Assembly (NCBI GenBank): GCA_965213975.1
Contig: OZ243930.1
Location: forward strand, 2,166,390 to 2,230,389
Direction of reading: 5' to 3'
Length of the DNA stretch: 64,000 nt
DNA from: Candidatus Spongiisociaceae bacterium
GTDB lineage: Bacteria > Actinomycetota > Acidimicrobiia > Spongiisociales > Spongiisociaceae
Numbering within the stretch: the stretch's first letter is position 1; each line of letters opens with the position of its first letter. The notes under the pieces are model-generated. The model was not told the origin of the DNA. It made no database searches and saw nothing but the letters and a program-made list of their open reading frames with translations. Below are positions 1,401-46,047 of this stretch, piece by piece. The position numbers were made by a program, and so were the translations under genes.

Positions 1401-1405
1401 GTTCC

Positions 1406-2425
1406 TCAGGCTTGGTCGGCGACCGACTGGAGCGTCTGGCCGATGAGCCGCGCAAACTGGATCAACCTTGGGCCCCATCGGCTGGATAGGTCGTCGTCGA
1501 CTTCGAAGAGGTAGCCGTTGCCCACCGCGCTCAGCTCGTCCCATCCAGGCCTTCCCGCCACCGACTCAGCTGTAGTCCCACACCAGACAGCGCAACCGAA
1601 GAAAATGAGGTCAGGATCTGACTCAAGGATGTGCTCCGGAGACAGCTGGGGGTACCCGGAGCCGTCGGGGTCGGCAGGGTCGGCGATGTTTTCCAAGCCG
1701 AACAAGCCGTACACGACCCCGATGAAGGTGCCGGAGGTAGCGGAGAAGAAAGTGTCCGAAATCTCGTGGTAGAACGTCAGACCCCGACCGATATCCCCAT
1801 GACGGGAAACCAACTCGGCGATCTCCTCCTCAAGGGAAGACACCAAAGCCTCGGCCTCCTCGGAGTGGCCGGTGGCGACCCCCATATGCCGCATCTGCTC
1901 GTAGGCATCCTCAAGGCTCAGCGCGGGCTCGTGGACGAGGGTCGGGATCCCCAGCGCAGCCAGACCAGAGACGATCTCGTCGGGATTGCCCGACATGATC
2001 ACCAGATCCGGCTCGTACTCGGCGAGGGCCTCCAGGTTGGGTCGAAACCCGCTGAGGTCAGTCACCGGCGCACCGGGCGGGTAGTTCGACAAGGAATCAA
2101 CCGCCACCACTTGGTCTCCTGCCCCGACCCCATACAACATCTCCGTGGCGGTGGGTGACAGGGACACGATGGCTACCGGCTGCTCCGGGATGACCATCCC
2201 TGCCACTGTCACCGGAAAGGCGGCCGGTTCTGTGGTGGTCGGTACCGGTTGCGTCGTAGTCGAATCCGGTTGTGTCGTAGTAGCGGCTGGCTGTGTCGTA
2301 GTAGGGGCCGGCTGCGTCGTGGTCGGATCCGGTTGGCTGGCGGTGGGGGCGGTGGTCGTATCCCCGCTGCACGCTCCGACTATGAGCGTCAAGACAAGAA
2401 AAATCGACCTAATGGTGAGTCGCAT
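1406..2425 (-). CDS. ABC transporter periplasmic substrate-binding lipoprotein (BtuF/FepB class), probably corrinoid-binding
   Basis: The protein has a lipobox LIVGAC and a Thr/Pro-rich (TTTQP)n linker followed by a class III SBP fold. It is first in the operon with the permease and ATPase, and a cobalamin riboswitch lies upstream. Confidence 0.85.
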   Translation of the reverse strand: MRLTIRSIFLVLTLIVGACSGDTTTAPTASQPDPTTTQPAPTTTQPAATTTQPDSTTTQPVPTTTEPAAFPVTVAGMVIPEQPVAIVSLSPTATEMLYGVGAGDQVVAVDSLSNYPPGAPVTDLSGFRPNLEALAEYEPDLVIMSGNPDEIVSGLAALGIPTLVHEPALSLEDAYEQMRHMGVATGHSEEAEALVSSLEEEIAELVSRHGDIGRGLTFYHEISDTFFSATSGTFIGVVYGLFGLENIADPADPDGSGYPQLSPEHILESDPDLIFFGCAVWCGTTAESVAGRPGWDELSAVGNGYLFEVDDDLSSRWGPRLIQFARLIGQTLQSVADQA

Positions 2426-2469
2426 GACATCCTCCTGTGATTAGGAAGGATGAAGAGAGATCGGCTGGA

Positions 2470-2700
2470 GCCCTTGAGGCCCCGTACGAGCAACCCTTCT
2501 TCCGAGAGCTGATACGTGACCATGGGTCAGGCGACCTGGCTCGTCCTCACCAGCGTGAGGCTTGACAGTTGCGGGACAGCGCCGGACTCGCACCGGACTT
2601 CGCTGGTCTCCATGGCATCCGGCTGTTCACCCGGACCGATACCCACTATAGCGATACTTCCCCCCAGGGATTCGGCATGATCTCGCGTAGTCCTACCTCT
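2470..2700 (-). ncRNA. Cobalamin (AdoCbl) riboswitch in the 5' leader of the SBP-permease-ATPase operon
   Basis: The minus strand contains GGTGCGAGTCCGGCGCTGTCCCGCAACTGTCAAGCC, which matches the conserved cobalamin-riboswitch core GGTG.GAATCCGG...CCCGCAACTGTAA. It also contains a B12-box-like GAGCCAGGTCGCCTGACC near the 3' side. An AGGAGGA SD sits 7 nt before the ATG at 2425. Boundaries are approximate. Confidence 0.6.
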
Positions 2701-2863
2701 TCGGACTAGACAGGCTCTCCGGGAGAAACGGGCCCAGTCGAGAGGCTTACCGAGATAGAAGAACCTGACCCAACCACCAGAGAGTCCCGGTCGACTCGCT
2801 CGATTAGCGACGTCATGTGGCTAGGTTGGACTACCAACTACTAGGGCGTTGAGGAGGACTGAT

Positions 2864-3274
2864 ATGGCTATAGAGCAGGCGCGCGACTTCATAAGGTCTA
2901 ACCATCGGGGCATTCTGCTCACCTCTCGCCGGGTTGGTTCGCCTCAGATGTCCCCCATCGTTGCCAACGTCGACGCGGAGGGTTACATCGTGGTGTCAAG
3001 CCGGGCTACCGCCTATAAGGTGAAGAACCTGGAACGGAACCCGCGAACGTCGCTCTGTATGTTCACCGATCGCTTTTACGGACAATGGTTCCAAGTAGAC
3101 GGGGTAGCGGAGATCATCAGGTTGCCGGAGGCCATGGAACCCCTGGTTGATTACTACCGGTCTCTTTCCGGCGAACATCCCGATTGGGCCGAGTATCGGG
3201 AGGCGATGCAACGAGAGGAGCGGGTGATCATCCGCATAACCGCCGAACATGCCGGGCCAACCCGACACGGCTAG
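2864..3274 (+). CDS. PPOX-class (pyridoxamine 5'-phosphate oxidase-like) probable F420-dependent enzyme
   Basis: The 136-aa protein shows a PPOX/FMN-binding split-barrel pattern (IVANVDAEGYIVVSSR...). A GAGGAGG SD lies 6 nt upstream of ATG 2864. Confidence 0.7.
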   Translation: MAIEQARDFIRSNHRGILLTSRRVGSPQMSPIVANVDAEGYIVVSSRATAYKVKNLERNPRTSLCMFTDRFYGQWFQVDGVAEIIRLPEAMEPLVDYYRSLSGEHPDWAEYREAMQREERVIIRITAEHAGPTRHG

Positions 3275-3298
3275 ACCCGACGCTTAGGGCATCAGGCA

Positions 3299-3391
3299 TG
3301 GCGGAGGGGGTGGGATTCGAACCCACGAGGAGGTGCAACCCCCTACGGCATTTCGAGTGCCGCGCACTAGGCCAGACTATGCGACCCCTCC
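3299..3391 (-). tRNA. tRNA-Ser (anticodon CGA)
   Basis: The 93-nt reverse complement is GGAGGGGTCGCATAGTCTGGCCTAGTGCGCGGCACTCGAAATGCCGTAGGGGGTTGCACCTCCTCGTGGGTTCGAATCCCACCCCCTCCGCCA. It has a 7-bp acceptor stem, a long variable arm, a GTTCGAATC T-loop, an anticodon loop CTCGAAA, and an encoded CCA. Confidence 0.9.
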
Positions 3392-3425
3392 GGAGCCTAT
3401 GCAGTCTACCCATCCGACGCAGGCC

Positions 3426-3881
3426 CTAGCCTCGCCGGGACTTGAAGAAGTCCCTCAACAGGGCGGAACACTCCTCTTCTAACACCCCAGACACCAACTC
3501 GATCCGGTGGTTTAATCGCGGGTCCTGGGGAACGTTGTAGAGACTCCACGCCGCTCCCGCCTTGAGGTCAGCGGCACCATAGACGATCCGATCGACTCGC
3601 GCCGCTACGGCGGCCCCGGCGCACATTACGCAAGGCTCCAAAGTGACCACCAGGGTGTGGCCAGCCAAACGCCATCCGCCAACCCGGCGGCCCGCGGCCC
3701 CGAGCACCAGCAACTCGGCGTGAGCAGTCGGATCGTGGCTTGCTTCACGACGATTGTGGTCGGACGCCACCGCGGTCCCATCCGGTCCCACCAGCAACGC
3801 CCCCACCGGGACGTCGCCGTGTAGGGGAGCTTTGACAGCTTCGGCGAGGGCCATCTGCATCCAATGTTCCCAGGAAGACAT
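3426..3881 (-). CDS. tadA: tRNA-specific adenosine deaminase TadA
   Basis: The protein carries the CMP/dCMP deaminase zinc motifs HAE...PCVMCAGA. The start is taken at MSSWEH; an in-frame alternative exists at 3893. Confidence 0.85.
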   Translation of the reverse strand: MSSWEHWMQMALAEAVKAPLHGDVPVGALLVGPDGTAVASDHNRREASHDPTAHAELLVLGAAGRRVGGWRLAGHTLVVTLEPCVMCAGAAVAARVDRIVYGAADLKAGAAWSLYNVPQDPRLNHRIELVSGVLEEECSALLRDFFKSRRG

Positions 3882-3964
3882 CACACCCACCACTAGCGAT
3901 ACCGGCTACATGAACACCGTGCAGCCCGCCGTCGAATGCGGATCACGAGCACCTGGTCGGTCGC

Positions 3965-4098
3965 CGACTCCGGTCCGGCACCCCCACGGCACCCGGCTCC
4001 GTTCGCTTAGGGCTGCTTCCTCCCGGACCTGACCCGGTTCACGAAGGTTCCGCTGCGTAGGACCCGACCTTCAACACCACGTGCCGACCGGACGCTCG
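3965..4098 (-). ncRNA. ffs: Candidate signal recognition particle RNA (small 4.5S-type, ffs)
   Basis: The minus strand reads ...CCGGGTCAGGTCCGGGAGGAAGCAGCC..., which matches the SRP RNA domain IV consensus CAGGUCAGGUCCGGAAGGAAGCAGCC with a GNRA tetraloop. Terminal segments near 3971-3983 and 4081-4093 are complementary, which is consistent with the long SRP hairpin. The position beside tadA and tRNA-Ser is typical. Ends are approximate. Confidence 0.6.
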
Positions 4099-4250
4099 CT
4101 GTCACGACACCCTTCGACGGGCATTCCGCCCCGCTTCTAGAGGGTTTCGGGCTACAGGACACCCCTAGCGCCCCGCGTAGCACGGTCGTAGCCAGTCTAA
4201 CGAAGGTCCCTGAAACGGCCACGAAGCCCAGCCGGTAGAATTGGCAGCCC

Positions 4251-4340
4251 GGAGGGATCGCATAGTCTGGCCTAGTGCGCACGCCTGGAAAGCGTGTTGG
4301 CGTTTACCGCGCCTCGTGGGTTCGAATCCCACTCCCTCCG
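4251..4340 (+). tRNA. tRNA-Ser (anticodon GGA)
   Basis: The sequence is GGAGGGATCGCATAGTCTGGCCTAGTGCGCACGCCTGGAAAGCGTGTTGGCGTTTACCGCGCCTCGTGGGTTCGAATCCCACTCCCTCCG. It has an anticodon loop CTGGAAA, a long variable arm and a 7-bp acceptor stem. CCA is not encoded. Confidence 0.9.
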
Positions 4341-4513
4341 CTGGCTAGCCGTACTGTCCAGGGGGTTCAACCACCCCTCGCCCCACGTATGGGCCCACCG
4401 GCAGCTGTACGCCACCAACCAGGCCCTCACCACTTACACTGAACGTCTCGTCTAGGCGTCTGCGTAGCCGAGCGGGGGTTGATGTAGTCACATTGATGCT
4501 CTAAAGTGACCAC

Positions 4514-4768
4514 ATGAATGTCGGCATCCGTGAACTCAAGGCTCGTCTATCGGAGTACGTGAAGAAGGCTGCGGCGGGAGAGCATATCCTCGTGACCGAC
4601 CGGGGCAGGCCGGTTGCGAGACTCGAAGGCCTAGGCGGCTCATCGAGGGTGGAAAGAGGGATCGCTGAGGGGTGGATAACGCCCCCGGCGCGCTCCGGAC
4701 TCACACCCGCCGTGTACTACAAGGCTTCTCGGAGCACCATGGAGGTGATAGACGAGGATCGGGGATGA
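4514..4768 (+). CDS. Type II antitoxin, Phd/YefM-like
   Basis: The 84-aa protein begins MNVGIRELKARLSEYVKKAAAGEHILVTDRGRPVARL, which is the canonical Phd/YefM N-terminus. Its stop overlaps the PIN-toxin start (ATGA at 4765-4768). Confidence 0.8.
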   Translation: MNVGIRELKARLSEYVKKAAAGEHILVTDRGRPVARLEGLGGSSRVERGIAEGWITPPARSGLTPAVYYKASRSTMEVIDEDRG

Positions 4769-5166
4769 CCCTTTATGTCGACACGAGTGCCCTGATCAAG
4801 CGGTATGTCCACGAGCGGGATTCCGAAGTCGCCGAGCAGCTGATGATGACCGATCCCGTACTCGTGACCTCGTGGCTCACCGAAGTCGAGCTGCGTCGCA
4901 ACCTCACTCGCCTCCTTGACGGTGACGATCTTGTCAGCGCCCGTCGTCGTGCCCAGGCAGACTTGGGCGCGTTCGCGCTGGTCAACCTCGATGCGGCTAC
5001 CTGCACCGATGCTGCCCGCATTGCGGAGCAGACACTGTGCCGTTCGCTCGACGCACTGCATGTGGCCGCCGCACTCCGCATAGGTCAGTTAACGACTTTG
5101 CTCACCTTTGACATACGCCAAGCTCAAGTCGCACGATCAGTAGGCCTCTCCGTCGTCGGAGTTTGA
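4765..5166 (+). CDS. vapC: PIN-domain toxin VapC
   Basis: The protein begins MTLYVDTSALIKRY and contains ...TSWLTEVEL... and ...LDALHVAAAL..., giving the PIN acidic quartet pattern. It is translationally coupled to the upstream antitoxin. Confidence 0.8.
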   Translation: MTLYVDTSALIKRYVHERDSEVAEQLMMTDPVLVTSWLTEVELRRNLTRLLDGDDLVSARRRAQADLGAFALVNLDAATCTDAARIAEQTLCRSLDALHVAAALRIGQLTTLLTFDIRQAQVARSVGLSVVGV

Positions 5167-5384
5167 CCAAAGGAGCATCTCACACATGGGGTCAAGATCT
5201 GATATAGGTCCCCTTCCGACCCAGGTAGGCGCGGACTTCTTCAGCCTTGTGGCGTATGTCGTCCTTTTGTGTGAACTTCGACCGGTACAGAAATGGGCTC
5301 TGGTTAAGACCCCGGATCGGCACATGGAAAAGTCAAGCAAGCTTGGCATAGCGATCGAGGACCTGAACGAATAGTCAACCCGCC

Positions 5385-7646
5385 CTAGTTCCAGTGATCG
5401 CGAGTGTACTCGTATTGGTCGTTGCCATACAGTTGCTTGGTCGCGTTACCGACCCGAACCCAAAAGTCGCTGGCGGTTGTGCCGCCATCCTGTGCTCGCG
5501 CGAACACCGGCTTTCCAGAAGATGAAACAAAAACGACACATACTGTGCCCGTTGAGGTCTCCTCGAAGGCAATCTCTACTACCTTGGCAGTCGAGATTGA
5601 GAGGTCTGCGTCAAGTCGCTGGCGTAGCCACAGTTCGTAAGAGTCGGTGTTCCTTCTCGCTTTGGTCATGGAGGAGAAATCAGGCCCGAGGCCTAGGACC
5701 GCGCCTTGGTCGTCCACGCCAATCAGAAGTGTCCCGCCATCAGAGTTGAGAAACCCGGCCACCGTCTTGACAATCACGTGTTCCATCGCCTTGTCAGACC
5801 GTCGGGCCCTCAGGTTGTAGCGAGCAGTCGACTTGAACTCGAGTGTCTGGGACTCACCAGCCTTAAGCATCTGCTGCAAGGTCGTGGAAGCTTGCCCGGG
5901 CACATGCCCTATCCGACTGAATCCCTGCCTGGTCACCCGGGCCATCAGCTTGCGGCGCTTCTCCAAGAATTCGGCGTAGTTCAACTGCTCCCAGCCGATA
6001 GGCAAGGCATGCAGGCGCGCCTGCTTGTCGAGCCGGCCGGACGCAAACCGGGCTGCCAAGGGGGGCCAGTAATCAGCGGGGCCAGCGGCACCCTTCGACA
6101 CGTCATCGGGCTGATCCATGAAGCCGGTGTTGGCGATGGCGTTATAGTCCGTGGATTTTTTCAGTCCCAGGGTTGCTAAATAGGCCCGCGGGAAAAGAAG
6201 GTCTCTGTCGAGCGACACCTTGGAACGTGGACCGGCGTCGAGCAGATCCCGCACGCGCTGCCTGCCCAGGAGCGTTTCCGCGTCGAGCAGCACCAGTGCC
6301 GCCCAATACGCCGACAGGGGTGCCGACTTGGGTGCCGATGTGTCGAGCTGGTTGGGAAGTGTGATCTCCCAGTAGTCGGATGTGAACTCAACCCCGATCA
6401 GTCGGTCCAACACCTCGAGAAACGCTTGGCCGTCCGAACCTGCCTGGGAGATGCGATTCAGATCGGATTGCAGTTGGCTCTCGGAAGAGCCCGTGTAGCG
6501 CCTAGTAGCGTGGGCCATGAAGAACCAGCGGGCGATCGCGTCATCAAGGGACGAAGTATCGGCATCCGTATCCCTTAGGCCGATCAACCAGATTATGTAG
6601 CAATATAGAACGGCAATGTCAGAGGTAATCATCCGCCGATCCCGGAATCCGGCCGTTCTCAGACATTCGAGGAAGCGACTCCAATTGGTGAGGTCCAACA
6701 CCTCGTCCTGCGCGCGCCTAAGCTCTCTGAACTGCCGATCTCGCCGTACCTCCGAGATCTCCCCGGTATCGAGGTCCTTGCCGCGCAAGATGTTGTAGAC
6801 GGTCGCCAAACTGCCCCTACGGAAGGCCAGTCCGACCGAGACACGCAACATCTGGTCGGCGTCGGGATCGATAAACGGGTTCCTCGGAGACCGCTGGCCC
6901 GGACTCGCGGTTCTGGCTTCTCGGCAGAAGTCCTCGAGTTGGCGGCGGCCCTTATCCCAGTACACCGACATCAGCGTCAGGATGAAGTTCGCCCGGTTGA
7001 GAATGGCCCCCTGGGAATTGGTTCGCACGAAGACTTCGGCCACCACGTCCGCTTCGACCCGTTCATTGATTTCGATGGCGTGAAACGCGAACCGTTGGAG
7101 GTCCCGGACCCGGTCGATCCGATCCTCGTATAGGTCCTTGTCCTGCTGGGTGATGTCTGTATGGCGTGAAGCTTGGAGACGGGACAGGAACTCGCGAACG
7201 GTCTGGCGATGGCTGACCCAGATTGCGGAAATGTCGGGAAGGTACTCGGGGTCCTGGCGAATCGCTGCGTTATACACATCGAAGGTCTCCGCCACCGGAT
7301 TAAAGGCTATGCGGATGCGCCTTTCTGTGAAGTTCTTGGTTAGAACGGCTTCGCCCGTGAGGATTGCATACAGGGATGTCAACCGCTGCTGGCCGTCTAC
7401 GATGGCCAATTTGGCCACCGACGTTGCGCTGTCATCGATCTGGCGTAGGTTCGCATCAGCGCCGGTATCCCAGAAGAGAAGGGAGCCGACCGGAAACCCC
7501 CGATACATAGAATCGATCAGCTCGCGGGCCTTCGTATTACCCCATACGAACGGTCGCTGGATATCCGGCAACCCGATCCTACCCTCGCTGATGTCTTCGA
7601 TCAGGGAGCCGAGAGAGTAAGTGGTGGTTCGGTAGAGGCTGGACAT
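5385..7646 (-). CDS. GmrSD-like DUF262 (ParB/Srx-fold) protein with a C-terminal AlbA_2/Schlafen-like domain; candidate stand-alone defence nuclease
   Basis: The N-terminus has the motifs IQRPFVW...DGQQRLTSL...FVRTNSQGAILNRANF, which define DUF262 (GmrSD/SspE/BrxU-type NTP-binding ParB-like domain). The C-terminal ~140 aa read TLEFKSTARYN...AGFLNSDGGTLLIGVDDQGAVLGLG, which matches the AlbA_2 'divergent AAA/Schlafen' DNA-binding domain. The middle region may hold a degenerate DUF1524-like segment. The start is placed at MSSLYRTT (ATG 7644-7646) with an AGGAAGG upstream; the ORF could extend in frame to 7706. Confidence 0.75.
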   Translation of the reverse strand: MSSLYRTTTYSLGSLIEDISEGRIGLPDIQRPFVWGNTKARELIDSMYRGFPVGSLLFWDTGADANLRQIDDSATSVAKLAIVDGQQRLTSLYAILTGEAVLTKNFTERRIRIAFNPVAETFDVYNAAIRQDPEYLPDISAIWVSHRQTVREFLSRLQASRHTDITQQDKDLYEDRIDRVRDLQRFAFHAIEINERVEADVVAEVFVRTNSQGAILNRANFILTLMSVYWDKGRRQLEDFCREARTASPGQRSPRNPFIDPDADQMLRVSVGLAFRRGSLATVYNILRGKDLDTGEISEVRRDRQFRELRRAQDEVLDLTNWSRFLECLRTAGFRDRRMITSDIAVLYCYIIWLIGLRDTDADTSSLDDAIARWFFMAHATRRYTGSSESQLQSDLNRISQAGSDGQAFLEVLDRLIGVEFTSDYWEITLPNQLDTSAPKSAPLSAYWAALVLLDAETLLGRQRVRDLLDAGPRSKVSLDRDLLFPRAYLATLGLKKSTDYNAIANTGFMDQPDDVSKGAAGPADYWPPLAARFASGRLDKQARLHALPIGWEQLNYAEFLEKRRKLMARVTRQGFSRIGHVPGQASTTLQQMLKAGESQTLEFKSTARYNLRARRSDKAMEHVIVKTVAGFLNSDGGTLLIGVDDQGAVLGLGPDFSSMTKARRNTDSYELWLRQRLDADLSISTAKVVEIAFEETSTGTVCVVFVSSSGKPVFARAQDGGTTASDFWVRVGNATKQLYGNDQYEYTRDHWN

Positions 7647-7901
7647 GGCGGGCAAGTCTACCTTCCTGGTGTGACACCAACAGATGTGACACCAACAGAA
7701 GCCCACTACCGTCGACGATAATCACGAGTCCCCCTAGCTCGACTCGACACCCGCAGATAAGACACTCGCCGGCAAACCCGGGCAGCTCAACCAGTGGCCA
7801 GTTGGGGCTTGGATCGCACTGAGGCGTCGCGCCCGCTTTGTCGGTGGCAGTTGCTATTTGTGAGCCAGTCGGTAGTTTGAAGCCGCTCACGGTGGTGGTT
7901 G

Positions 7902-9843: not shown

Positions 9844-10920
9844 CTAACCCCTCGGGTTGATGCGGATCGGCGACTCCCACACGTTGTTGGAGGTGTCCAA
9901 CTCATCCTCTACTACCGTGACTTTGAAGGTAAGCAGGTACTCCGCCCCCGGCTCCACCACCTCCGTCCCGAACAGGACCGATCCGATTTCCCCCGGCGCC
10001 AAATCCAAGGCCGGACTATCCACTGAGGAAAGCGTCTCACCGCCTTCGGATCGAATACCGGCCGTCACCAAGAGTCCCTTCTGTTCTACGTTGCCCCGGT
10101 TACCTACCACCGCGCTGAACTGCAGCCGCTCTGTCGCCGGGAACAAAATCTCTCCCTCCTGACCCAAACCACCGGCGGGCAAGGGCTCGAACACCACCTG
10201 GAGAATGGCGACATCCCGACGCACGCCCATCGCCGTGCTGCTTCGGATGGTTCGCGCTAGCCTCTCGCCGTTGAGAAGCGGCCTCTGGTCGATTATGAAC
10301 GAGATATCGGGCATTGAGTTGGTTATGCCCATCTCTTCTATCAGGTCGTCCGCCCTGGCGAGGTAACTCTCATACACCAGATCCCCAACCCGGATTCGAG
10401 CGATGGCCCCTCCCAAACGGTCGACCGGCACCGAACCAGATGGGTCGTCGGTCACGTCGGTGACTGCGTCTCGAAACTCGACCAATCCCTCCTCCCAGGA
10501 GGTGAAGGCGAGCTCGAGTAAGTCCCTCACCGACGACACCCTTTCCGGTACCGGTACCTCCCTGAACTCCTGCGCCTCCACCATCATCTCCGCGGAGAGC
10601 CGATCCATTAACGCTACGAAGTCGTCTCGGTTGATGGTCCGCAGTTCGTTGCTGACCAGCCGCCGAAATCCCTCGGCTATCTGATCCACCTGCCCGGCGG
10701 ACACTCGGGCCATATCGAAAAAGGCAGTCTGCTCGCGAGCCCTGGTTCCGAGGTTTCCGACCGCCGCGGAAAGCCCCACCACCGTCGCCAATAATCCGGC
10801 CAATACCCAAACCCACCGTCGCCGGGCACGAGGACGTCGTGGCCGATACCGCTCGGTCACGAGCCTCTTCTCCTGATGGTCAGCTGAGAGGCAGCAACGC
10901 CTGTCGCCAAGCCGGAACAC
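9844..10920 (-). CDS. Hypothetical membrane-anchored protein with C-terminal CARDB-like beta domains
   Basis: The 358-aa ORF has codon usage consistent with neighbours. It has a basic N-terminus followed by a TM helix (WVWVLAGLLATVVGLSAAV). The C-terminus reads ...TFKVTVVEDELDTSNNVWESPIRIN. Confidence 0.55.
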   Translation of the reverse strand: MFRLGDRRCCLSADHQEKRLVTERYRPRRPRARRRWVWVLAGLLATVVGLSAAVGNLGTRAREQTAFFDMARVSAGQVDQIAEGFRRLVSNELRTINRDDFVALMDRLSAEMMVEAQEFREVPVPERVSSVRDLLELAFTSWEEGLVEFRDAVTDVTDDPSGSVPVDRLGGAIARIRVGDLVYESYLARADDLIEEMGITNSMPDISFIIDQRPLLNGERLARTIRSSTAMGVRRDVAILQVVFEPLPAGGLGQEGEILFPATERLQFSAVVGNRGNVEQKGLLVTAGIRSEGGETLSSVDSPALDLAPGEIGSVLFGTEVVEPGAEYLLTFKVTVVEDELDTSNNVWESPIRINPRG

Positions 10921-11131
10921 TCAACTGCGCCCAATAGCCGATCCAACCGAACCCCTGTCCATTCCCGAGTCGAATACCACCCACCCGCACAATCGAGCGT
11001 AGCCACGACGGTACATGTTTCCTACGAACCAACCACAAACACCGAGCGAGCCCATGACCGCCGAAACAACCCCGCCCCACTTGCACCTGGCCACAGACCA
11101 CACGCCACAGGAGTAACATTCCCTGGTTCCG

Positions 11132-11217
11132 GGGCGAGTGGCGGAATTGGTAGACGCGCTGGGTTCAGGACCCAGTGAGCATTTAAGCTCGTGGAGGTTC
11201 GAGTCCTCTCTCGCCCA
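11132..11217 (+). tRNA. tRNA-Leu (anticodon CAG)
   Basis: The sequence is GGGCGAGTGGCGGAATTGGTAGACGCGCTGGGTTCAGGACCCAGTGAGCATTTAAGCTCGTGGAGGTTCGAGTCCTCTCTCGCCCA. It has a long variable arm and an anticodon loop TTCAGGA. Confidence 0.9.
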
Positions 11218-11245
11218 CTACAAACCAGACAGAGTCTCACCAATT

Positions 11246-11407
11246 CCGACGGTGTACTGGACCCTCCGCGAAAATGTGCGCGCCCGCCTCCGCGTTCTGG
11301 CCCGGCGCACCCTCCGCAAGTACCACTACCCGCCCGACAAGCAAGAGAGAGCTACCCAAACCGTCCTGCAACAGGCTGAAGTCCTCTCAGAAGCCTGGGC
11401 CGCCTAA
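11246..11407 (+). pseudogene. hsdR: Remnant of a type I restriction enzyme R subunit (HsdR): the C-terminal ~50 codons only
   Basis: Immediately 3' of tRNA-Leu the sequence translates to ...[50 protein letters not shown], which is the conserved extreme C-terminus of HsdR proteins (...R.[33 protein letters not shown].L). No upstream body of the gene is present. Confidence 0.6.
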
Positions 11408-11429
11408 CCCTTGCTGCGGCTTGTGCCCC

Positions 11430-11960
11430 TCATTTAGACGTGGAATCGAACAGCGATCCAAGTGGTTTGGGCTTCGCTGCCCTTCGTTTCTTCGCGGCTA
11501 TCCGCTTCATGCGCTGCTGCACCAAGTGGACAGCCCTCTCTACCGACAAGCGCTCATTCTTGGTTCGTAGGGAACGTATGCATACGGGTCCGGCTGCGCT
11601 CTGCAAAAGGTCTTCCCATTCACGGGCCGCTCGGAACACGAGAACGACCATCTCATCCCTGGTGACTTTCCGCCCGCGGGGATCCAGCCAGATCACCGAC
11701 TGGTGCTGTTCGAGGCAGAGCAGGATCATATCGTGATTCGATGTGACCACTACCTGGTTGGTAGCTCGGGCATGGTCGATAATTTCCTGGTCGGAAGAGC
11801 CCCGGGGCGGAGCGCTGTCTTTCTCGTTCCCTACGTAGCTGGCGTTGTATTCGAGTTGCCGCAGCGCGCTGGCCACTCTCCACGGAAGGTTCTCATCGAA
11901 TAGGAGACGGCATCGGGGATGTCTACGCCGCTGGCTTCGACTCTCAGGCGGCGATTTCAT
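11430..11960 (-). CDS. DUF5615 (PIN-like) domain protein, putative toxin partner of the DUF433 protein
   Basis: The protein contains RLLFDENLPWRVASALRQLEYNASYV...VVVTSNHD, typical of the DUF5615 family, plus a basic C-terminal tail. Its 5' end overlaps the upstream DUF433 gene, and the start is ambiguous (11960 or 11993). Confidence 0.6.
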   Translation of the reverse strand: MKSPPESRSQRRRHPRCRLLFDENLPWRVASALRQLEYNASYVGNEKDSAPPRGSSDQEIIDHARATNQVVVTSNHDMILLCLEQHQSVIWLDPRGRKVTRDEMVVLVFRAAREWEDLLQSAAGPVCIRSLRTKNERLSVERAVHLVQQRMKRIAAKKRRAAKPKPLGSLFDSTSK

Positions 11961-12576
11961 ACTGCAGGGCAGCGCGTACCTGTGTGATGTCAAGACTCAG
12001 GTCGTCGGCGATGTCCTCGATGTGGTCACCCACGGCTTCGAGGTCGGCTATAACGCTGGTGGGCACCCGGGTCCCATCGATGCACGGTGCGCCCGCCTGG
12101 ACTTTCGGGTTGAGCCACACGCCTTCGGATGGCCGCCAGATGGATGCGTACAGGTCGGGTCCGAACTCGATAGGACTCAGAAGCTCTTTGATCACCGCTG
12201 GGAAGGATCTCTGGCCACCTTTACCCAGGTCGACCCAATCCTTGAATTTGCCGAAGACGCCAGCACCTACCGTGGCCAACTCCTGATGAGCGAAGGGGTA
12301 GTTCGTATCGACGTGCTCAGCTATGTATTGTCCTCCTGCCCGGATCTCCTGTCGAGGAACGCCACGCCTGAGCAGTTCGGATATCACCCAGAGGCTGATC
12401 AGGTCGAGGAAAGAGAGGATCCGATCACTCTCCACAGGGTGCAGCGGATTGGCACCCCGGGTCCAACGCGCGACCGTCTCGGGGTGTCTGCCCACTACCC
12501 GGGCTGTCTCGATAATGTCGTAGATACCCCGCCCCAGTAGCGGTTCGGTCTTGCGAGCTTCAGCATGTGTAGCCAT
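11944..12576 (-). CDS. DUF433 domain protein with an N-terminal HTH-like extension, putative antitoxin
   Basis: The C-terminus reads GAPCIDGTRVPTSVIADLEAVGDHIEDIADDLSLDITQVRAALQYE, which matches the DUF433 core (G.P.I.GTR..V..I.....G.S.EEI...YP.L....I.AAL.Y). The gene sits directly upstream of, and overlaps, the DUF5615 gene. Confidence 0.65.
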   Translation of the reverse strand: MATHAEARKTEPLLGRGIYDIIETARVVGRHPETVARWTRGANPLHPVESDRILSFLDLISLWVISELLRRGVPRQEIRAGGQYIAEHVDTNYPFAHQELATVGAGVFGKFKDWVDLGKGGQRSFPAVIKELLSPIEFGPDLYASIWRPSEGVWLNPKVQAGAPCIDGTRVPTSVIADLEAVGDHIEDIADDLSLDITQVRAALQYEIAA

Positions 12577-12766
12577 AGCGGTCTCCGGCGTCTACGCGGT
12601 TGTGTGGCAAGAAACTACACGCTAGTAGGGGTTCGGGAGGTGACGTGGTCCCAAGCCCCCCGATAGACCGCCTCGTCAGGGGTGGTCGCGAAGACCCCAC
12701 GACCCATCGGCGCACTATGGTGCCCACCGGGTTTTCGGTGGCCAGCGGCTAGTTGGGTGGTGCGGG

Positions 12767-13237
12767 CTAACGAATTTCTGGAACACCGAGCCGGGTGTCT
12801 GGCTCGATTCGGTTCTTCAGTCGCTCTAGGTTGCTCTTCCAGATCCTGGCCAGGAGGATTCTTCCCACCCAGGCACCGACCGGGCCTCCATAACGCCAGG
12901 GAAACCGGATCCGCTCCTGCCACACGAGTCGGCTCTTGCCGGACGTGACGGGTGTCAGCTCGAAGCGGCCCACTCCCTGGAACAGGCCGGTGTGTCGACC
13001 CCTGATGATCCGCTTCGGGACCAATTCGGTTATCTCGAAGCGGTCGGTGGTGCGGAGCGGCCCCACCCGAGTGTCGATGAGAAGAACCGTGCCGATTCCT
13101 TGCGTACGGTCGGTCTCGAAGCGGATCGCAACCGCGTCCTTCATCCACTCGACGTGGGACTCGAACGCGGCGAGCTCCTTCCAGACTCGATCGACAGCCG
13201 CGTTGATTTCTGTCTCGACCGCTACCGAGACGTCCAT
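12767..13237 (-). CDS. SRPBCC (START/Bet v1-like, polyketide cyclase/dehydrase-type) family protein
   Basis: The protein begins MDVSVAVETEINAAVDRVWKELAAFESHVEWMKDAVAIRFE..., a typical SRPBCC sequence. The long GC-rich 5' extension of the ORF is unlikely to be coding. Confidence 0.65.
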   Translation of the reverse strand: MDVSVAVETEINAAVDRVWKELAAFESHVEWMKDAVAIRFETDRTQGIGTVLLIDTRVGPLRTTDRFEITELVPKRIIRGRHTGLFQGVGRFELTPVTSGKSRLVWQERIRFPWRYGGPVGAWVGRILLARIWKSNLERLKNRIEPDTRLGVPEIR

Positions 13238-15739: not shown

Positions 15740-15858
15740 GTGTGCCAGCTTATCCGCTTAGGGAACCCTCGGTTGACATGCCTGCGGCCGGAAGACTCGA
15801 GCTGGTTGGATCGCCTTCGGCGGGAGATGAGCTGGGCGGGCTGGGTTATCCTCCCCTG

Positions 15859-17211
15859 ATGCCCGATCTTCGCCGCCTCCCGTCGGTCGATGCTCTGGCC
15901 AGGCGGTTGCTCACCTCACCTAGCTGCGATCTACCGCAGGCTGTAGTAATCGAGATTGCCCGGCGCAACATTGAGGCTGCCCGATCCGCGGCCCTCGACG
16001 GCCGAGATATCGATCCGGACGAGATGGCCCAATTTGAGGTCAGGAGACTGTCAAGTACCCGCATTGACCGAGTCGTCAACGCTACCGGGGTCATCCTCCA
16101 CACCAACCTGGGCCGGGCCCCGTTGCATGCGTCGGCGGCGGCAGCAGCCCGCCGGGCCGCCCTGGGCTACACCAATCTGGAGTTTGACCTCACCGAGGGC
16201 GCTCGAGGCGGCAGGGGTCGCTACCTGACCGAGTTGCTTACCCACCTGACCGGGGCCGGAGCGGCTATGGCGGTGAACAACAACGCCGCCGCCCTCTTTC
16301 TGACCCTCCACACGCTGGCCGGGGACGGCTCGGTTCCGGTGTCCCGAGGGGAGCTGATCGAGATCGGCGGGTCCTATCGCCTACCCGAGTTGATGGCAGC
16401 ATCTGGTACCCGTTTGCTGGAAGTTGGAACCACCAACCGGACCCGGATCGCCGACTACCGCCAGGCGATCCAAGAGGACACCCGCCTGCTGCTGAAGGTC
16501 CACCCGTCTAACTACCGAGTGGTGGGCTTCTGCGAGGAGGTGTCCGTCAGGGATCTGGTGAGTCTGGCTCATACCCACCACCTTCCGGTGGTGTATGACG
16601 TCGGAAGCGGGCTGGTCGACCGAGAGACCCCCTGGCTGGGCGGGCCGCCTCCCCGGTGGATAGGGGACGAACCAGGCGTACGCCAGGTACTCGCCGATGG
16701 TGCCGATCTGGTCACCTTCTCGGGGGACAAGCTGTTCGGAGGCTGCCAGGCGGGCATCATTGCGGGACGACCTGACCTGGTGGCTGGCTTGAAGGCCAGC
16801 CCGGTCGCCCGGGCGATGCGCTTGGATGGTTCGTCGCTCGCCGCTCTCAGCCGCACCTGCGAGCTCTACGCCGAGGGAAGAGGTGCCGAGATCCCGTTCT
16901 GGAGGAAGGTGAATTACCCGGTGGACGATCTGGAGTCCCGTCTGCAGCGTCTTGCCGATCAGGCCGGGGTGGCCCGAGACATCCGTCAGTCTGAGTCAAT
17001 GGTGGGGGCCGGGTCGGTTCCAGGCATGACGGTTCCTACTCCGGTGCTCGCCCTGCCCGATGGTGAGGGACTCTGGGACGGCTTGTTGAGGGGGAACCCG
17101 CCGGTGGTGGCCCGCCGTTCGGCAGGCGAGCTGTTGGTCGATCTCCGAGCGGTCGATTCGGATGACGACGTGCTTATCGCCGCCTCGCTGAGAGAACTGT
17201 GCCGGTCGTAG
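15859..17211 (+). CDS. selA: L-seryl-tRNA(Sec) selenium transferase
   Basis: The protein carries a PLP-dependent fold with SelA-specific motifs (MPDLRRLPSVDALARRLL... ; ...FSGDKLFGGCQAGIIAGRPDLVAGL...). The longer ORF from 15742 would abut the divergent fxsA start with no promoter space, so the start is placed at M40 (15859). Confidence 0.85.
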   Translation: MPDLRRLPSVDALARRLLTSPSCDLPQAVVIEIARRNIEAARSAALDGRDIDPDEMAQFEVRRLSSTRIDRVVNATGVILHTNLGRAPLHASAAAAARRAALGYTNLEFDLTEGARGGRGRYLTELLTHLTGAGAAMAVNNNAAALFLTLHTLAGDGSVPVSRGELIEIGGSYRLPELMAASGTRLLEVGTTNRTRIADYRQAIQEDTRLLLKVHPSNYRVVGFCEEVSVRDLVSLAHTHHLPVVYDVGSGLVDRETPWLGGPPPRWIGDEPGVRQVLADGADLVTFSGDKLFGGCQAGIIAGRPDLVAGLKASPVARAMRLDGSSLAALSRTCELYAEGRGAEIPFWRKVNYPVDDLESRLQRLADQAGVARDIRQSESMVGAGSVPGMTVPTPVLALPDGEGLWDGLLRGNPPVVARRSAGELLVDLRAVDSDDDVLIAASLRELCRS

Positions 17212-18980
17212 GAACCGGTGGGCACGTTGACCACGGCAAGTCCACCCTGGTTCATGCGCTGACCGGACGCGATCCAGATCGCTGGAAGGAAGAAAAAGAT
17301 CGCGGCCTCACGATTGATCTGGGTTTTGCCTGGACGAACCTGGGAGGTCAGGAGGTCTCCTTCGTCGACGTGCCCGGGCACGAGCGATTCATCAAGAACA
17401 TGCTCGCCGGGAGTGGCGGCTTCGATGTGGCTTTGCTGGTCGTGGCCGCCGACGAGGGCTGGATGCCCCAATCCGAGGAGCACGTCGCCGTATTTGACCT
17501 GCTTGAGACCCGAAGTGGGGTAGTGGCCTTGACCAAGATCGACAAGGCCGATGCCGACCTGATCGAGTTAGCGGGCCTGGAAGTAGAAGAGCGCCTAGCC
17601 GGCACCTCTCTGGAAGGATGCCCCATAGTGGGGGTTTCAGCCCAGACCGGAGAAGGACTCGAACGGCTGGAGGCGGTCCTGGCGGAGGCGATAACCCGCG
17701 CTCCCGACCGGAGCCGTTCGCCGAGTCGGCTATGGGTAGACAGGGTCTTTCCGATGGCGGGAGCGGGAACGGTCGTTACCGGAACCCTGGCGGGGGGCAC
17801 CATCGAGCTTGGCGACGAGTTTGAGGTACATCCGGGTGGTATCCGCGGACGGATTCGATCTCTCCAGGCCCACGAGACCTCACGGAGTCGGGTAACCGCG
17901 GGCACCCGGACGGCGGCGAGTATCGCCGGGCTCGATCGCTCCAAGGTCGGCCGGGGATCCATGCTGGGCCGACCCGGGGAATGGATACCGAGCGATCGCC
18001 TCCTAGTGAAGCTTCGTCGGGCTCGCTACGTCGCCGACCCCTTGTCCCGACGGGGTGCCTACCAAATGCACCTGGGAAGTGGGGCCTGGCCGGTGCGTTT
18101 GGTGACCGTCGGCGACGACGGTGAGGCCACCGTCGGCATACTGCGATCGGAGCAGCCGATCCCGGTGCAGATGGGCGATCGTCTCATACTCCGCGATGTG
18201 GGAAGACGGCTGATCGTGGCGGGAGGTCAGGTCCTCGATCCGGTGGCACCGCGCAAGGGTCGGGAGGCGAGGCGGGCGGCGGCTCTTCTCGGTTCGGCAT
18301 TAGCTGCTGATAGCGACGGTCGAGCTGATGCCCTCCTCGAGTGGCGGGGCATATCGTCGCCGACGACCTTGGCGGCCCATTCCGGAGGCGGTCGGCCACA
18401 TGGCGGTCTGAAGGCCGGCGGCCTGCTGCTGAGCCTGGCTTATGCTCGTAAGTTGTCGGCCGAAGCCGAGAAGATCGTCGAAGATTTCCATCGCGATCAT
18501 CCTCTCCGCCCGGGCATGCCGAAGGCCAGTCTGGCGAGTGGGCTCGGAGTAGACGTAGACGTGTTGGACGAGTTGATAGCGATCACGGACGGCCTTGGCC
18601 ACCAAGAGGCAACGGTGGCTAGAGCCAATTTCTCTCCCCGACTCAGCGAATCCGAGGAAATGACCTGGGCACAGACTCGGGATATGCTCGCCAGTTCTGG
18701 ACCGCAGGTTCCCACCCTCAAAGAGTTGGATATTGATCCCGAGTTGCTGCACGCTCTGTTAAGAGAAGGTCGCCTGGTGCGCATCTCGAACGAACTGGCG
18801 TACCTGCCCGAGCAGGCGGATGATCTGGTTGATCGTATGCAGCGCCTTGCGGACGGCTTCACGGTCGCCGACTTCCGTGATGCCACCGGACTCACCCGTA
18901 AGTACGCGGTTCCTTTCCTTGAGTGGAGCGATGACGCCGGGCTGACGACCCGTGACGGGAGTACCCGCTCCTTCAACTGA
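17199..18980 (+). CDS. selB: Selenocysteine-specific translation elongation factor
   Basis: The N-terminal GTPase reads GHVDHGKSTLVHALTG...DRGLTIDLGF.... C-terminal winged-helix domains follow. The gene overlaps the selA end by 13 nt. Confidence 0.9.
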   Translation: MPVVGTGGHVDHGKSTLVHALTGRDPDRWKEEKDRGLTIDLGFAWTNLGGQEVSFVDVPGHERFIKNMLAGSGGFDVALLVVAADEGWMPQSEEHVAVFDLLETRSGVVALTKIDKADADLIELAGLEVEERLAGTSLEGCPIVGVSAQTGEGLERLEAVLAEAITRAPDRSRSPSRLWVDRVFPMAGAGTVVTGTLAGGTIELGDEFEVHPGGIRGRIRSLQAHETSRSRVTAGTRTAASIAGLDRSKVGRGSMLGRPGEWIPSDRLLVKLRRARYVADPLSRRGAYQMHLGSGAWPVRLVTVGDDGEATVGILRSEQPIPVQMGDRLILRDVGRRLIVAGGQVLDPVAPRKGREARRAAALLGSALAADSDGRADALLEWRGISSPTTLAAHSGGGRPHGGLKAGGLLLSLAYARKLSAEAEKIVEDFHRDHPLRPGMPKASLASGLGVDVDVLDELIAITDGLGHQEATVARANFSPRLSESEEMTWAQTRDMLASSGPQVPTLKELDIDPELLHALLREGRLVRISNELAYLPEQADDLVDRMQRLADGFTVADFRDATGLTRKYAVPFLEWSDDAGLTTRDGSTRSFN

Positions 18981-27127: not shown

Positions 27128-27760
27128 GTGGCAGCAGCAGAGGATCGCACGGCGAGAAGCCTTGCTGTTATAGCGACCCGCGCTCATTCTCGCTACACCA
27201 CCGTGGAGGCAGTGGCGACGGCCGCTCTGCGCGATGCGATCCTGACAGGAGTGTTCCGGCCCGGCCAGCGGCTGCGCCAGCAGCGCCTAGCCGAGGATCT
27301 GATGATGTCACGGATTCCGGTCGTCGGTGCTTTACGGGCGCTCGAGCAGGAGGGGTTGGTGACGCTGATTCCTCATCGCGGAGCGACCGTGCGGATCCTC
27401 AAACCCGCCGAAATCGAGGAGACCTATCAGCTTCGTATCCTCTTGGAGACCTTCGCGTTGCTCAAGACGTTCGGGCGTATCACCTCCCGGGAAACCGAAG
27501 AGCTAGCCGACCTCGCCTGCGAGATCGACGGAGCCGCTGATATAGTGTCACGGCTCCGGGCGAACGTAGGTCGCTACTGGCTGGGTCTCAGAGTGGTGCC
27601 CCACCATCATTCGGCGCATAGTGTGATCGTCGAAGCCATCCGTTCAGGCGACTACGCAAGGGCAGAACAGTGGATCACCGATCACCTCACCCGTGTATCA
27701 ACCGAACTACAGGAACGAATCAGGAACACCCACCGTGGACACTCCGCTGCGTCCGCATGA
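27128..27760 (+). CDS. GntR-family transcriptional regulator (FadR/FCD subfamily)
   Basis: The N-terminal winged HTH reads RLRQQRLAEDLMMSRIPVVGALRALEQEGLV. It is followed by an FCD-type helical C-terminal domain. Confidence 0.8.
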   Translation: MAAAEDRTARSLAVIATRAHSRYTTVEAVATAALRDAILTGVFRPGQRLRQQRLAEDLMMSRIPVVGALRALEQEGLVTLIPHRGATVRILKPAEIEETYQLRILLETFALLKTFGRITSRETEELADLACEIDGAADIVSRLRANVGRYWLGLRVVPHHHSAHSVIVEAIRSGDYARAEQWITDHLTRVSTELQERIRNTHRGHSAASA

Positions 27761-27915
27761 GGCCGGGATGCCTTCGTAGGGGCGTTCGTGGTGGGGATCG
27801 CGCTGGGCCTTCCGGAGCGGGATGCGGTGCGACTCGGCAACGCCTGCGCCGCGGACAGCGTCACTCGGCCGGGCACCCGGACCTCTTTCCCGAGTCCCGA
27901 CCGGGCTGGAGGTTC
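27761..27915 (+). pseudogene. Remnant of a PfkB-family carbohydrate kinase (C-terminal ~50 codons only)
   Basis: Immediately after the gntR stop, in the +1 frame, the sequence reads GRDAFVGAFVVGIALGLPERDAVRLGNACAADSVTRPGTRTSFP.... This matches the C-terminal PfkB signature GAGDAF.GAF...L..G.....A...A.A.AA.SV...GA. No upstream kinase body exists. Confidence 0.5.
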
Positions 27916-46026: not shown

Positions 46027-46047
46027 CCCGACAAGACGAAGGCGAAC

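Follow-up and report, generated by a model that had tools for sequence, protein, structure and literature searches.

Of the toxin-antitoxin (TA) systems described to date, VapBC45 of Mycobacterium tuberculosis offers the closest experimental precedent for the gene pair discussed here: its product Rv2019 is toxic, cleaves rRNA and mRNA, and is neutralized by Rv2018 (PMC5175181). The fusion of a winged helix-turn-helix (wHTH) to a DUF433 domain was described in 2009 (PMC2701414). A second precedent, VapBC10 (ssr2962/slr1767) of Synechocystis sp. PCC 6803, is a working TA system of the PIN-COG2442 type, whose genes are cotranscribed, whose toxin arrests growth, and whose antitoxin both rescues the cells and binds its own promoter (PMC3834315). 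A link between DUF433-PIN_10 TA modules and type I restriction-modification (R-M) systems was already noted by Matelska et al. in 2017, who also described hsdM/hsdS operons with a PIN-like nuclease but without an R subunit (PMC5499597). Finally, the anticodon nuclease PrrC, which resides within EcoprrI, a type IC R-M system, is the precedent for an RNase that serves as a guard of such a system (PMC3874165).

Here we examine a 64-kb stretch of a sponge-associated acidimicrobiian genome (the window), in which the 1.5 kb following a tRNA-Leu(CAG) gene is an ordinary decayed defense locus at a lineage-specific variable site (Table 1). It holds the last codons of a type I R-subunit gene (hsdR') and, convergent with them, an intact antitoxin-toxin gene pair. 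We consider it probable that the locus joins a dead hsdR' to a live, mobile VapBC45-like cassette, the latter likely being a companion that has outlived the R-M system. All the elements that a first-pass annotation had observed at this site, with the sequence as its sole source, were found again where it had placed them; what changes is the account of how they came together.

Table 1. Parts of the locus in window coordinates, with the evidence for each
Feature	Position	Strand	Basis
Molybdopterin oxidoreductase gene relic, internal fragment, ~38 codons	10908..11021	-	tblastn
tRNA-Leu(CAG), intact	11132..11218	+	ARAGORN; Rfam tRNA, 57 bits
Junction spacer, tRNA to clear hsdR homology	11219..11248	no strand	Weak, gapped HsdR similarity (protein and DNA)
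hsdR' relic, T1RH-like_C type	11249..11407	+	Last ~52 codons and native stop of a type I R-subunit gene
Spacer, hsdR' stop to toxin gene stop (convergent)	11408..11429	no strand	22 nt, from sequence
Mobile TA cassette, ~1.2 kb	11426..12622	-	Block of DNA homology to copies elsewhere
Toxin gene, DUF5615/PIN_10 (Mut7-C group) PIN-like, 176 aa	11430..11960	-	Pfam
Antitoxin gene, Rv2018/VapB45-like, 210 aa	11944..12576	-	Pfam DUF433; PDB 5AF3
Cassette leader	12577..12622	-	Sequence and alignment of cassette ends
Spacer, cassette to SRPBCC (Polyketide_cyc2) gene	12623..12766	no strand	Without homology to other cassette loci
SRPBCC (Polyketide_cyc2) gene, neighbor of the cassette	12767-13231		Pfam

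The frame beyond the tRNA gene translates to 62 residues, which match the Pfam T1RH-like_C domain (PF11867) at positions 281-328 of 329 with an E value of 3.1e-17 and a score of 63 bits (cutoff, 26.8), far above chance, so that only the last 48 of the 329 profile positions are represented. The same peptide matches positions 976-1023 of 1029 of the PADLOC REase_I profile, and HsdR tails compared with the window by tblastn are 79-84% identical to it at this place. These matches bear out the first-pass assignment of the peptide to the C terminus of HsdR, although the peptide as quoted there lacked its final 'AA'. Homology to HsdR begins 15-31 nt past the 3' end of the tRNA gene, and the junction spacer in between, of uncertain origin, may be degraded hsdR sequence. 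The DNA alignment lends no support to a microhomology of the tRNA 3' end (CTCGCCCAC) with the hsdR codons that specify 'IAREL', a possibility also considered.

Two near-invariant motifs of the tail are altered (TIDW to TVYW and LVRR to LARR), the only start codon preceding the codons homologous to HsdR is a GTG within the tRNA gene, and outside that gene the frame lacks both a start codon and a ribosome-binding site. To judge from its sequence, hsdR' is what remains of a gene for a type I restriction R subunit, dead and nonfunctional. The frame, which is open as far as its native stop codon, might instead be taken to mean that the 52-codon tail has been kept because it is functional, whether by encoding a short polypeptide or by acting in cis, for instance to terminate transcription or to insulate the cassette from the tRNA gene. 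In favor of this reading, orphan ORFs of the T1RH-like_C type do recur, both on long contigs and on a cyanobacterial plasmid (Gloeothece), the latter the only further orphan tail in the plasmid search. Yet such orphans in related sponge MAGs occur in decayed or IS-disrupted R-M loci and are cut at differing points, a search for a terminator-like site at the tail found none, and both the position of the only start codon and the substituted residues speak against a retained function. The recurrence is itself partly a search artifact, since the proteins that the 62-aa tail retrieved are all 108 aa or shorter, apparently through a length filter that also yielded no intact HsdR for comparison. We hence regard a functional tail as highly improbable.

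The remainder of an R-M system is missing from the window, as the first-pass annotation had stated. Neither an hsdR body nor hsdM or hsdS was recovered by Pfam among the 20 ORFs scanned (nearly all of the large ones), HSDR_N and ResIII/SWI2_SNF2 domains are absent from these ORFs, and tblastn with full-length HsdM, HsdS, and HsdR against the window translated in six frames returned no other R-M match at an E value of ≤0.01.

The tRNA gene itself is 95-98% identical to its counterparts in four related genomes (L008 and L088-L090), and DNA homology to relatives ceases exactly at its 3' end, which is where the variable region starts. Beyond this point the sequence differs in all five of the five clade members compared; the four relatives each carry different genes there, and the content of the window is absent from them. 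This comparison of the orthologous site was made at the family level, the best relative in a genome scan with serS being 71% identical and none being close. The conserved gene order runs from tRNA-Leu(CAG) through an oxidoreductase gene and p358 to serS, the Oxidored_molyb gene being intact in those four relatives and lying between the tRNA and p358/serS genes. In the window it has been reduced to a fragment with 66-74% identity (tblastn; E values of 1e-9 to 2e-10) to the Oxidored_molyb proteins of L089, L090, and L008. This second relic lies on the opposite side of the tRNA gene from hsdR'.

The first-pass annotation had concluded that a type I R-M system once sat at this tRNA and that the DUF433/DUF5615 module was its replacement cargo. 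An R-M island that integrated at tRNA-Leu(CAG) and was later deleted and replaced would accord with the onset of HsdR homology so near the tRNA 3' end, with the variability of the site among relatives, and with a cassette that is independently mobile and occurs elsewhere without the tail. However, the hallmarks of such an island did not turn up. Even with up to 3 mismatches allowed, the window contains a single instance of the 3'-terminal 23 nt of the tRNA gene, with no direct repeat; the local repeats near the gene are short and at chance level, and a 31-nt match between window positions 12669-12699 and L092, checked as a possible repeat element, proved unique. One integrase and three transposases from related loci found no match in the window by tblastn, and no integrase occurs among its Pfam-scanned ORFs, although small or degraded fragments could remain. 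Intact hsdRMS genes, which the first-pass annotation proposed to seek at this tRNA in relatives, were present there in none of the five examined; these genomes do not carry the pair at the same place free of any R-M history either, relatives having it elsewhere. The geometry, moreover, is that of neighbors: hsdR' and the toxin gene end 22 nt apart, tail to tail, and the missing body would have lain on the tRNA side, so the space it vacated is not where the cassette sits. Taken with the family-level association described below, which favors coresidence, these observations leave integration followed by replacement an unlikely course of events.

The antitoxin and toxin genes lie on the same strand, overlap by 17 nt, and are both intact. 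The antitoxin comprises an N-terminal MerR-like wHTH, a central β domain, and a C-terminal three-helix bundle formed by DUF433 (PF04255; E=1e-15; residues 156-206). Over residues 46-205 it matches the sequence of Rv2018 (PDB 5AF3) with an E value of 1.2e-9 and ~22% identity. Its AlphaFold2 (AF2) model (pLDDT 84.9) recovers 5AF3 in a Foldseek search with a TM score of 0.65 and an E value of 2.7e-9, followed by members of the MerR family. Sequence and model together identify the antitoxin as Rv2018 (VapB45)-like. The additional N-terminal HTH suspected at first pass is accounted for by the MerR-like winged helix of the model and by the match to Rv2018. The gene evolves under a dN/dS of 0.17-0.23.

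The toxin matches DUF5615 (PF18480) with an E value of 2e-13 and PIN_10 with an E value of 7e-6, and Mut7-C weakly; together with the DUF433 match of its partner, this upholds the first-pass reading of a two-gene TA-like pair. Its PIN_10 score, at 26.5 bits, lies barely above the cutoff of 26.2, and it is through this marginal match alone that direct homology to Rv2019 is suggested. The sole in-frame start is the ATG at 11958-11960, from which the protein begins with an Arg-rich N-terminal leader; it ends in a basic C-terminal extension of ~55 aa, a feature pointed out at first pass and found here to be conserved across the toxin subfamily, which numbers 113 representatives at an E value of ≤1e-3 in 1.84 billion proteins. 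The acidic and Thr/Ser positions of the motifs D-E, D, T-S-N-x-D, and W-x-D are conserved in 19 homologs, and the dN/dS of the gene is 0.18-0.24. A single-sequence AF2 model gave no usable fold (pLDDT 41), and a search of PDB sequences with the toxin family profile returned no homologous solved structure. From its family membership and conserved positions, the toxin is predicted to be a PIN-like RNase. The pair had been termed poorly characterized, a description that no longer fits given its homology to Rv2018/Rv2019, a system with a tested RNase toxin (PMC5175181) and a solved antitoxin structure (PDB 5AF3).

Both genes are part of a block of DNA that recurs in at least four genomic contexts among related sponge-associated Acidimicrobiia. 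The copies at L092/93, L001-4, and L095 are 81-89% identical to that of the window at the DNA level (blastn), and in four contexts the homology stops sharply at window positions 11426-11437 and 12622. Terminal inverted repeats (GTGGAAnTCG) were considered for these ends and rejected as unconserved coding sequence. The order of the two genes is kept wherever a toxin homolog is detectable, down to ~37% antitoxin identity, and purifying selection acts on both (dN/dS of 0.14-0.24). The GC3 of the cassette is 0.66-0.68, against 0.73-0.76 in most neighboring genes. Upstream of the antitoxin gene, the leader contains a putative Shine-Dalgarno sequence, GGAG at 12583-12586, which is spaced 6 nt from the ATG, and a candidate promoter element, the -10-like TAGTTT at 12612-12617. 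Other copies of the cassette run ~20 nt further upstream, and because this shared stretch is missing from the window copy, its expression is a prediction. PADLOC has no model for either protein, and a scan of viral contigs found no full-length homolog. By sequence and by analogy, the DUF433/DUF5615 pair is a live VapBC45-like type II TA cassette, with toxicity and neutralization as its predicted properties, for which the purifying selection on both genes is indirect evidence.

At the level of the family, the long-DUF433 antitoxins are associated with type I R-M systems. Type I hsd genes occur within 9 of the 26 long-DUF433 locus groups and in none of the 67 control loci (Fisher p=3e-6), the controls being anchored on serS, a housekeeping gene, so that the excess may stem from a general tendency of TA modules to cluster in defense islands rather than from a specific partnership; further, related HsdR proteins occur in some of the R-M-positive groups, which do not count as independent. 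The pair is codirectional with and 45-530 nt downstream of hsdR or hsdM in five locus groups, and in more distant relatives (L099, L102, L109, L146, and L148) the toxin gene lies inside or directly beside an intact type I hsd operon. One close copy (L095) adjoins an Azaca ZacABC system. The adjacency to R-M genes makes a surviving companion more likely than replacement cargo. Other observations suggest that the juxtaposition in the window could be coincidental: the closest copies of the cassette have no R-M neighbors, and the T1RH-like_C tail is found at none of the 82 loci with a long-DUF433 gene. The cassette could have arrived after the hsdR deletion. Its orientation, convergent with hsdR', also departs from the codirectional arrangement usual in R-M-positive loci.

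The same data invite two stronger readings. According to one, the family of long-DUF433 antitoxins and extended DUF5615 toxins would be a dedicated partner of type I R-M, a PrrC-like backup RNase or stabilizer recruited beside hsdR or hsdM of several unrelated subfamilies; we think this unlikely, and, if true, it would make the window a case of a guard outliving the system that it once guarded. The other would couple the pair to type I R-M as PrrC is coupled to EcoprrI, with a latent RNase that fires when a phage disables the R-M system and that has been orphaned here. The frequency of hsd neighbors, the five groups with the pair close downstream of an hsd gene, the PrrC precedent, and the R-subunit-less hsdM/hsdS operons with a PIN-like nuclease of Matelska et al. 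would all agree with such a guard. Nevertheless, the pair has its own antitoxin and in M. tuberculosis works by itself as a TA system (PMC5175181), most of its copies, the closest included, are without an R-M neighbor, its R-M partners belong to different HsdR subfamilies, and the housekeeping-anchored control set cannot separate a guard from general defense island clustering. A latent guard of this kind is, in our estimation, very unlikely.

Returning to the surviving companion, we infer the following order of events. The hsdR' relic and the TA cassette are two evolutionarily separate elements; the latter moves as a unit of ~1.2 kb and, as do more distant members of its family, is prone to settle next to genes of type I R-M or of other defense systems. 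Most likely it adjoined hsdR as a companion or stabilizer. An hsdR body of ~1000 codons, with any hsdM and hsdS, would then have been removed by deletion or rearrangement, with an endpoint abutting the tRNA gene, which selection would have kept intact, and the cassette would have outlived the R-M system. A promoter within the cassette would drive the cotranscription of its two genes, and their overlap would couple their translation. The PIN-like toxin would act as a metal-dependent RNase that degrades rRNA or mRNA and arrests growth, and the antitoxin would bind and neutralize it and control the operon by way of its HTH domains; a cell that lost the cassette or broke down the antitoxin would be left with free toxin, an addiction effect.

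None of these results will greatly surprise a specialist. The locus is nonetheless a textbook case of defense island turnover in a sponge-associated acidimicrobiian genome, and the sharp ends of the cassette in four contexts make it a clean case of TA movement without visible transposition machinery. The R-M enrichment extends an earlier anecdotal observation and provides a testable hypothesis on the cooperation of TA and R-M systems.

Among the known systems, PrrC/EcoprrI resembles the family in placing an RNA-cleaving toxin in or beside a type I hsd operon, a layout seen in the distant relatives of the window pair. PrrC differs in having no dedicated antitoxin and in being silenced by the R-M complex, and the dedicated antitoxin of the window pair argues against a strict dependence of its toxin on R-M. 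At the window, in addition, R-M is reduced to a relic, and no intact hsd operon lies beside the toxin. The defense island of Belliella baltica (Matelska et al. 2017) combines a DUF433-PIN_10 TA module with HsdM, HsdS, and GmrSD, and the window likewise has a GmrSD_N domain protein (5385-7706), 3.7 kb away. However, the R-M subunits of Belliella are intact and in one operon with the TA genes, whereas the window retains a 52-codon relic, and serS along with further core genes stands between its GmrSD-like gene and the pair.

VapBC10 shares with the window the pairing of a DUF433 (COG2442) antitoxin with a PIN domain toxin. The typical COG2442 domain, however, is only 70-80 aa and lacks a wHTH or middle domain (Makarova et al., PMC2701414), and VapB10 activates rather than represses its operon. 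The nearest likeness is to VapBC45 (Rv2018, PDB 5AF3; Rv2019). The antitoxins are only ~22% identical, and the window toxin is matched best by DUF5615 and marginally by PIN_10 and bears both the conserved basic extension and the Arg-rich leader. Still, the two systems share the antitoxin architecture of wHTH, middle domain, and DUF433, a toxin of the Mut7-C-like PIN group (COG4634/DUF5615, PIN_10), and the organization as a two-gene TA module in which the antitoxin adjoins the toxin. The VapBC45-like annotation thereby ties a gene pair of an uncultured symbiont to an experimentally tested M. tuberculosis system.

The site 3′ of tRNA-Leu(CAG) is an ordinary decayed defense locus, in which a dead hsdR stub lies beside a live, mobile, VapBC45-like toxin-antitoxin (TA) cassette. 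The first-pass annotation had described an orphan HsdR C terminus after this tRNA, with no HsdR body, hsdM, or hsdS, and, convergent with it, overlapping genes for a DUF433 protein with an extra N-terminal helix-turn-helix (HTH) domain and a DUF5615 protein with a basic C-terminal tail. This observation is correct in all of these points, and the interpretation placed on it is partly right. The frame 3′ of the tRNA, read over 53 residues, matches the ends of both Pfam T1RH-like_C (positions 281 to 328 of 329; E = 3.1e-17) and PADLOC REase_I (positions 976 to 1023 of 1029). Homology to hsdR is clear at both the protein and DNA levels up to the native stop codon, and the 30 nt that separate it from the tRNA may be degraded hsdR sequence. 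No Hsd proteins were found among the 20 open reading frames (ORFs) scanned with Pfam, which include nearly all of the large ORFs of the window, and tblastn searches of all window frames with full-length HsdM, HsdS, and HsdR from related loci retrieved nothing beyond the hsdR tail. Its features identify the piece as a fragment of a pseudogene and not as a small gene of its own: the codons homologous to HsdR are preceded by a single start codon, a GTG that lies within the tRNA gene, and several near-invariant columns of the family are substituted (e.g., TIDW to TVYW and LVRR to LARR). The public 89-aa protein record over this stretch (P0121; 11138 to 11407, plus strand) is an annotation artifact that starts at the GTG in tRNA-Leu and reads through into the relic.

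Features of the window discussed in the text
Feature	Position	Strand	Remarks
Cobalamin riboswitch	2509-2654	-	Rfam RF00174, 36.4 bits; upstream of genes at ~360-2425
Small defense-like cluster	3299-7706		Around two tRNA-Ser genes and SRP RNA
PIN-domain protein	4672-5166	+	Within the defense-like cluster
773-aa protein, GmrSD_N + SLFN_AlbA_2	5385-7706	-	Matches PADLOC HEC-05/PDC-M55C models
Oxidored_molyb relic	10908-11021	-	Internal fragment, only piece of the gene left
tRNA-Leu(CAG)	11132-11218		Intact; ARAGORN and Rfam
hsdR relic	~11249-11407	+	Clear homology through native stop
Toxin gene, DUF5615/PIN_10	11430-11960	-	176 aa; opposite to hsdR tail
Antitoxin gene, C-terminal DUF433	11944-12576	-	210 aa; opposite to hsdR tail
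selA + selB	15742-18980		Selenocysteine synthase and its elongation factor; no tRNA-Sec found by ARAGORN within the window
~1-kb stretch	27761-28737		Between a 210-aa ORF (27128-27760) and the CCA-adding enzyme gene; no convincing ORF, no Rfam match
dnaA	39308-40945		Marks origin proximity
gyrB/gyrA	44029-48489		Marks origin proximity

The window is high-GC acidimicrobiial DNA (61.6% GC) close to the replication origin, and its nearest relatives are sponge-associated "Candidatus Spongiisociaceae" MAGs. The gene order tRNA-Leu(CAG), p358 (a conserved neighbor of serS), serS, and a ubiE-like methyltransferase is conserved across Acidimicrobiia. In most of the genomes compared (loci L008 to L040 and L088 to L090) the tRNA, which lies upstream of p358/serS, is co-oriented with serS. 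In the clade of the window (with L008 and L088 to L090) it points the opposite way from the remaining Acidimicrobiia examined, which suggests that a local inversion took place at this breakpoint long ago. These four relatives carry an intact molybdopterin oxidoreductase (Oxidored_molyb) gene between the tRNA and p358, of which the window keeps only 38 codons; therefore, gene relics flank the tRNA on both sides. The sequence past the tRNA 3′ end differs in every genome of the clade, and ~17.5 kb of mostly core genes stands between the tRNA and the genes that come after it in L089. The ~1-kb stretch listed in the table lies at the far edge of this segment, which parts tRNA-Leu from PolyA_pol in the window but not in L089. 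The site behaves as a hotspot of rearrangement and turnover. A tRNA-integrated island was also considered; the tRNA 3′ end has no second copy anywhere in the window, none of four integrases/transposases tried has a homologue there, and no integrase occurs among the ORFs scanned, and thus the defining features of such an island are absent.

The tRNA stands in the place, left of the tail, that the hsdR body would once have taken up; the event that removed this body therefore ended at the tRNA. The proposal that a type I restriction-modification (R-M) system had been located at this tRNA gains nothing from comparison, as none of the relatives examined has hsdRMS at the site. Orphan hsdR tails of the same kind are also found in related sponge metagenome contigs: L005/L006 (4600 to 10900) hold a decayed type I R-M locus with a truncated hsdM and two separate hsdR tail fragments, and in L007 (8400 to 12300) a tail directly follows an IS (rve) element and precedes STM3845/RVT_1 (reverse transcriptase) genes. 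A Gloeothece plasmid carries a further such tail. The L005/L006 locus also contains a PIN/FitA TA pair, an SLFN_AlbA_2 gene, and DUF2442.

The toxin and antitoxin genes overlap by 17 nt, and 22 nt separate the stop codons of the toxin gene and hsdR. DNA similarity between the cassette and its closest copies (89% identity in L092/93, 84% in L001 to L004, and 82% in L095) always stops at 11426 to 11437 and at 12622. The cassette is therefore a unit of ~1.2 kb, present in at least four contexts: at tRNA-Leu(CAG) in the window, near tRNA-Leu(TAA) among IS elements (L001 to L004), between metabolic genes (L092), and beside an Azaca ZacABC defense system (L095). The other copies share ~20 nt more upstream among themselves than with the window copy, which lacks these but keeps a putative Shine-Dalgarno sequence and a −10-like TAGTTT. 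Pairwise dN/dS is 0.14 to 0.24 for both genes, and the GC3 of the cassette is below that of most neighboring genes. The window copy is intact, unlike decaying copies elsewhere: in L119/120 a 548-bp internal deletion takes the promoter and two-thirds of the antitoxin gene and the toxin gene is frameshifted, and in-frame stops interrupt the toxin gene in L002, L100, and L101/104. In L001 to L003 (11380 to 12215), the cassette lies ~1 kb from tRNA-Leu(TAA), with fragments of 63 and 82 aa in between that by eye resemble carboxymuconolactone decarboxylase/AhpD and with IS elements nearby; this layout of tRNA, gene relic, and convergent cassette matches that of the window. The L095 Azaca system (1144 to 7494, minus strand; ZacA E = 3e-124, ZacB E = 7e-161, ZacC E = 0 with PADLOC) is complete, directly adjoins the cassette, and is divergent from it.

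The pair had been read as cargo that replaced the R-M system. The cassette, however, does not occupy the position of the missing hsdR body, and the long-DUF433 antitoxin family often adjoins type I R-M genes: hsdM-hsdS-x-x-hsdR-DUF433-DUF5615 in L109 and L099, with the pair ~100 nt past the hsdR stop; hsdS-hsdM-DUF433-DUF5615 in L102; hsdM-hsdS-hsdR-DUF433 in L146; hsdS-hsdM-DUF433 in L148; and, in L112, a pair divergent from an EcoEI-type hsdR. Together these make replacement unlikely, and a companion that outlived its R-M system is the better reading. When the distinct long-DUF433 locus groups are restricted to those that span 6 kb or more, 9 of 26 have hsd genes; among control loci anchored on serS and taken from similar taxa, 0 of 67 do (Fisher P = 3e-6). 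This difference has to be read with three points in mind: the anchor of the control is a core gene, related HsdR proteins recur in some of the positive groups, and TA modules in general cluster in defense islands. Single cases of a link between DUF433-PIN TA and type I R-M systems were already noted by Matelska et al. (2017; PMC5499597). None of the 82 loci carrying a long-DUF433 gene has a T1RH-like_C tail; therefore, the juxtaposition of relic and cassette is unique to the window and their histories are separate. PrrC/EcoprrI is a precedent for partnership with type I R-M systems (PMC3874165), but we consider a specific partnership of that manner improbable for this TA family.

The toxin belongs to a small subfamily, for which a search of 1.84 billion proteins gave 113 representatives at E ≤ 1e-3. 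Its members are predicted from sequence to have a PIN-like fold, and the positions D-E, D, T-S-N-x-D, and W-x-D are conserved among them. Also conserved is the C-terminal extension (VCxRALRTK...RMKRIxAKKR...KPxPLGPL), which makes the basic tail a trait of the whole family. Residues 46 to 205 of the antitoxin match the crystal structure of Mycobacterium tuberculosis Rv2018 (PDB 5AF3; E = 1.2e-9). Its AlphaFold2 model (47 homologues; pLDDT 84.9) has an N-terminal HTH, two long helices followed by a β-rich middle domain, and the DUF433 three-helix bundle; in Foldseek it fits 5AF3 over the full length (TM 0.65; E = 2.7e-9), followed by the DUF433 structure 2GA1 and MerR family DNA-binding domains. 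Fusions of wHTH and COG2442 paired with PIN genes, including Rv2018/Rv2019, were described by Makarova et al. (2009; PMC2701414), and Matelska et al. (2017; PMC5499597) assigned COG4634 and PIN_10 to the Mut7-C-like PIN group and, for a PIN_10 toxin, identified Rv2018 as its antitoxin. Rv2019 makes Escherichia coli as well as M. smegmatis stop growing, degrades rRNA and mRNA in an activity abolished by EDTA, and is neutralized in vivo by Rv2018 (Kim et al., 2016; PMC5175181), while Synechocystis VapBC10, a PIN-COG2442 pair, is a proven TA system (PMC3834315). The earlier designation as a TA-like pair thus stands, and only "poorly characterized" has to be dropped: given the Rv2018 match and the published work on Rv2018/Rv2019 and VapBC10, the window pair belongs to a known, partly characterized, VapBC45-like kind of TA system.
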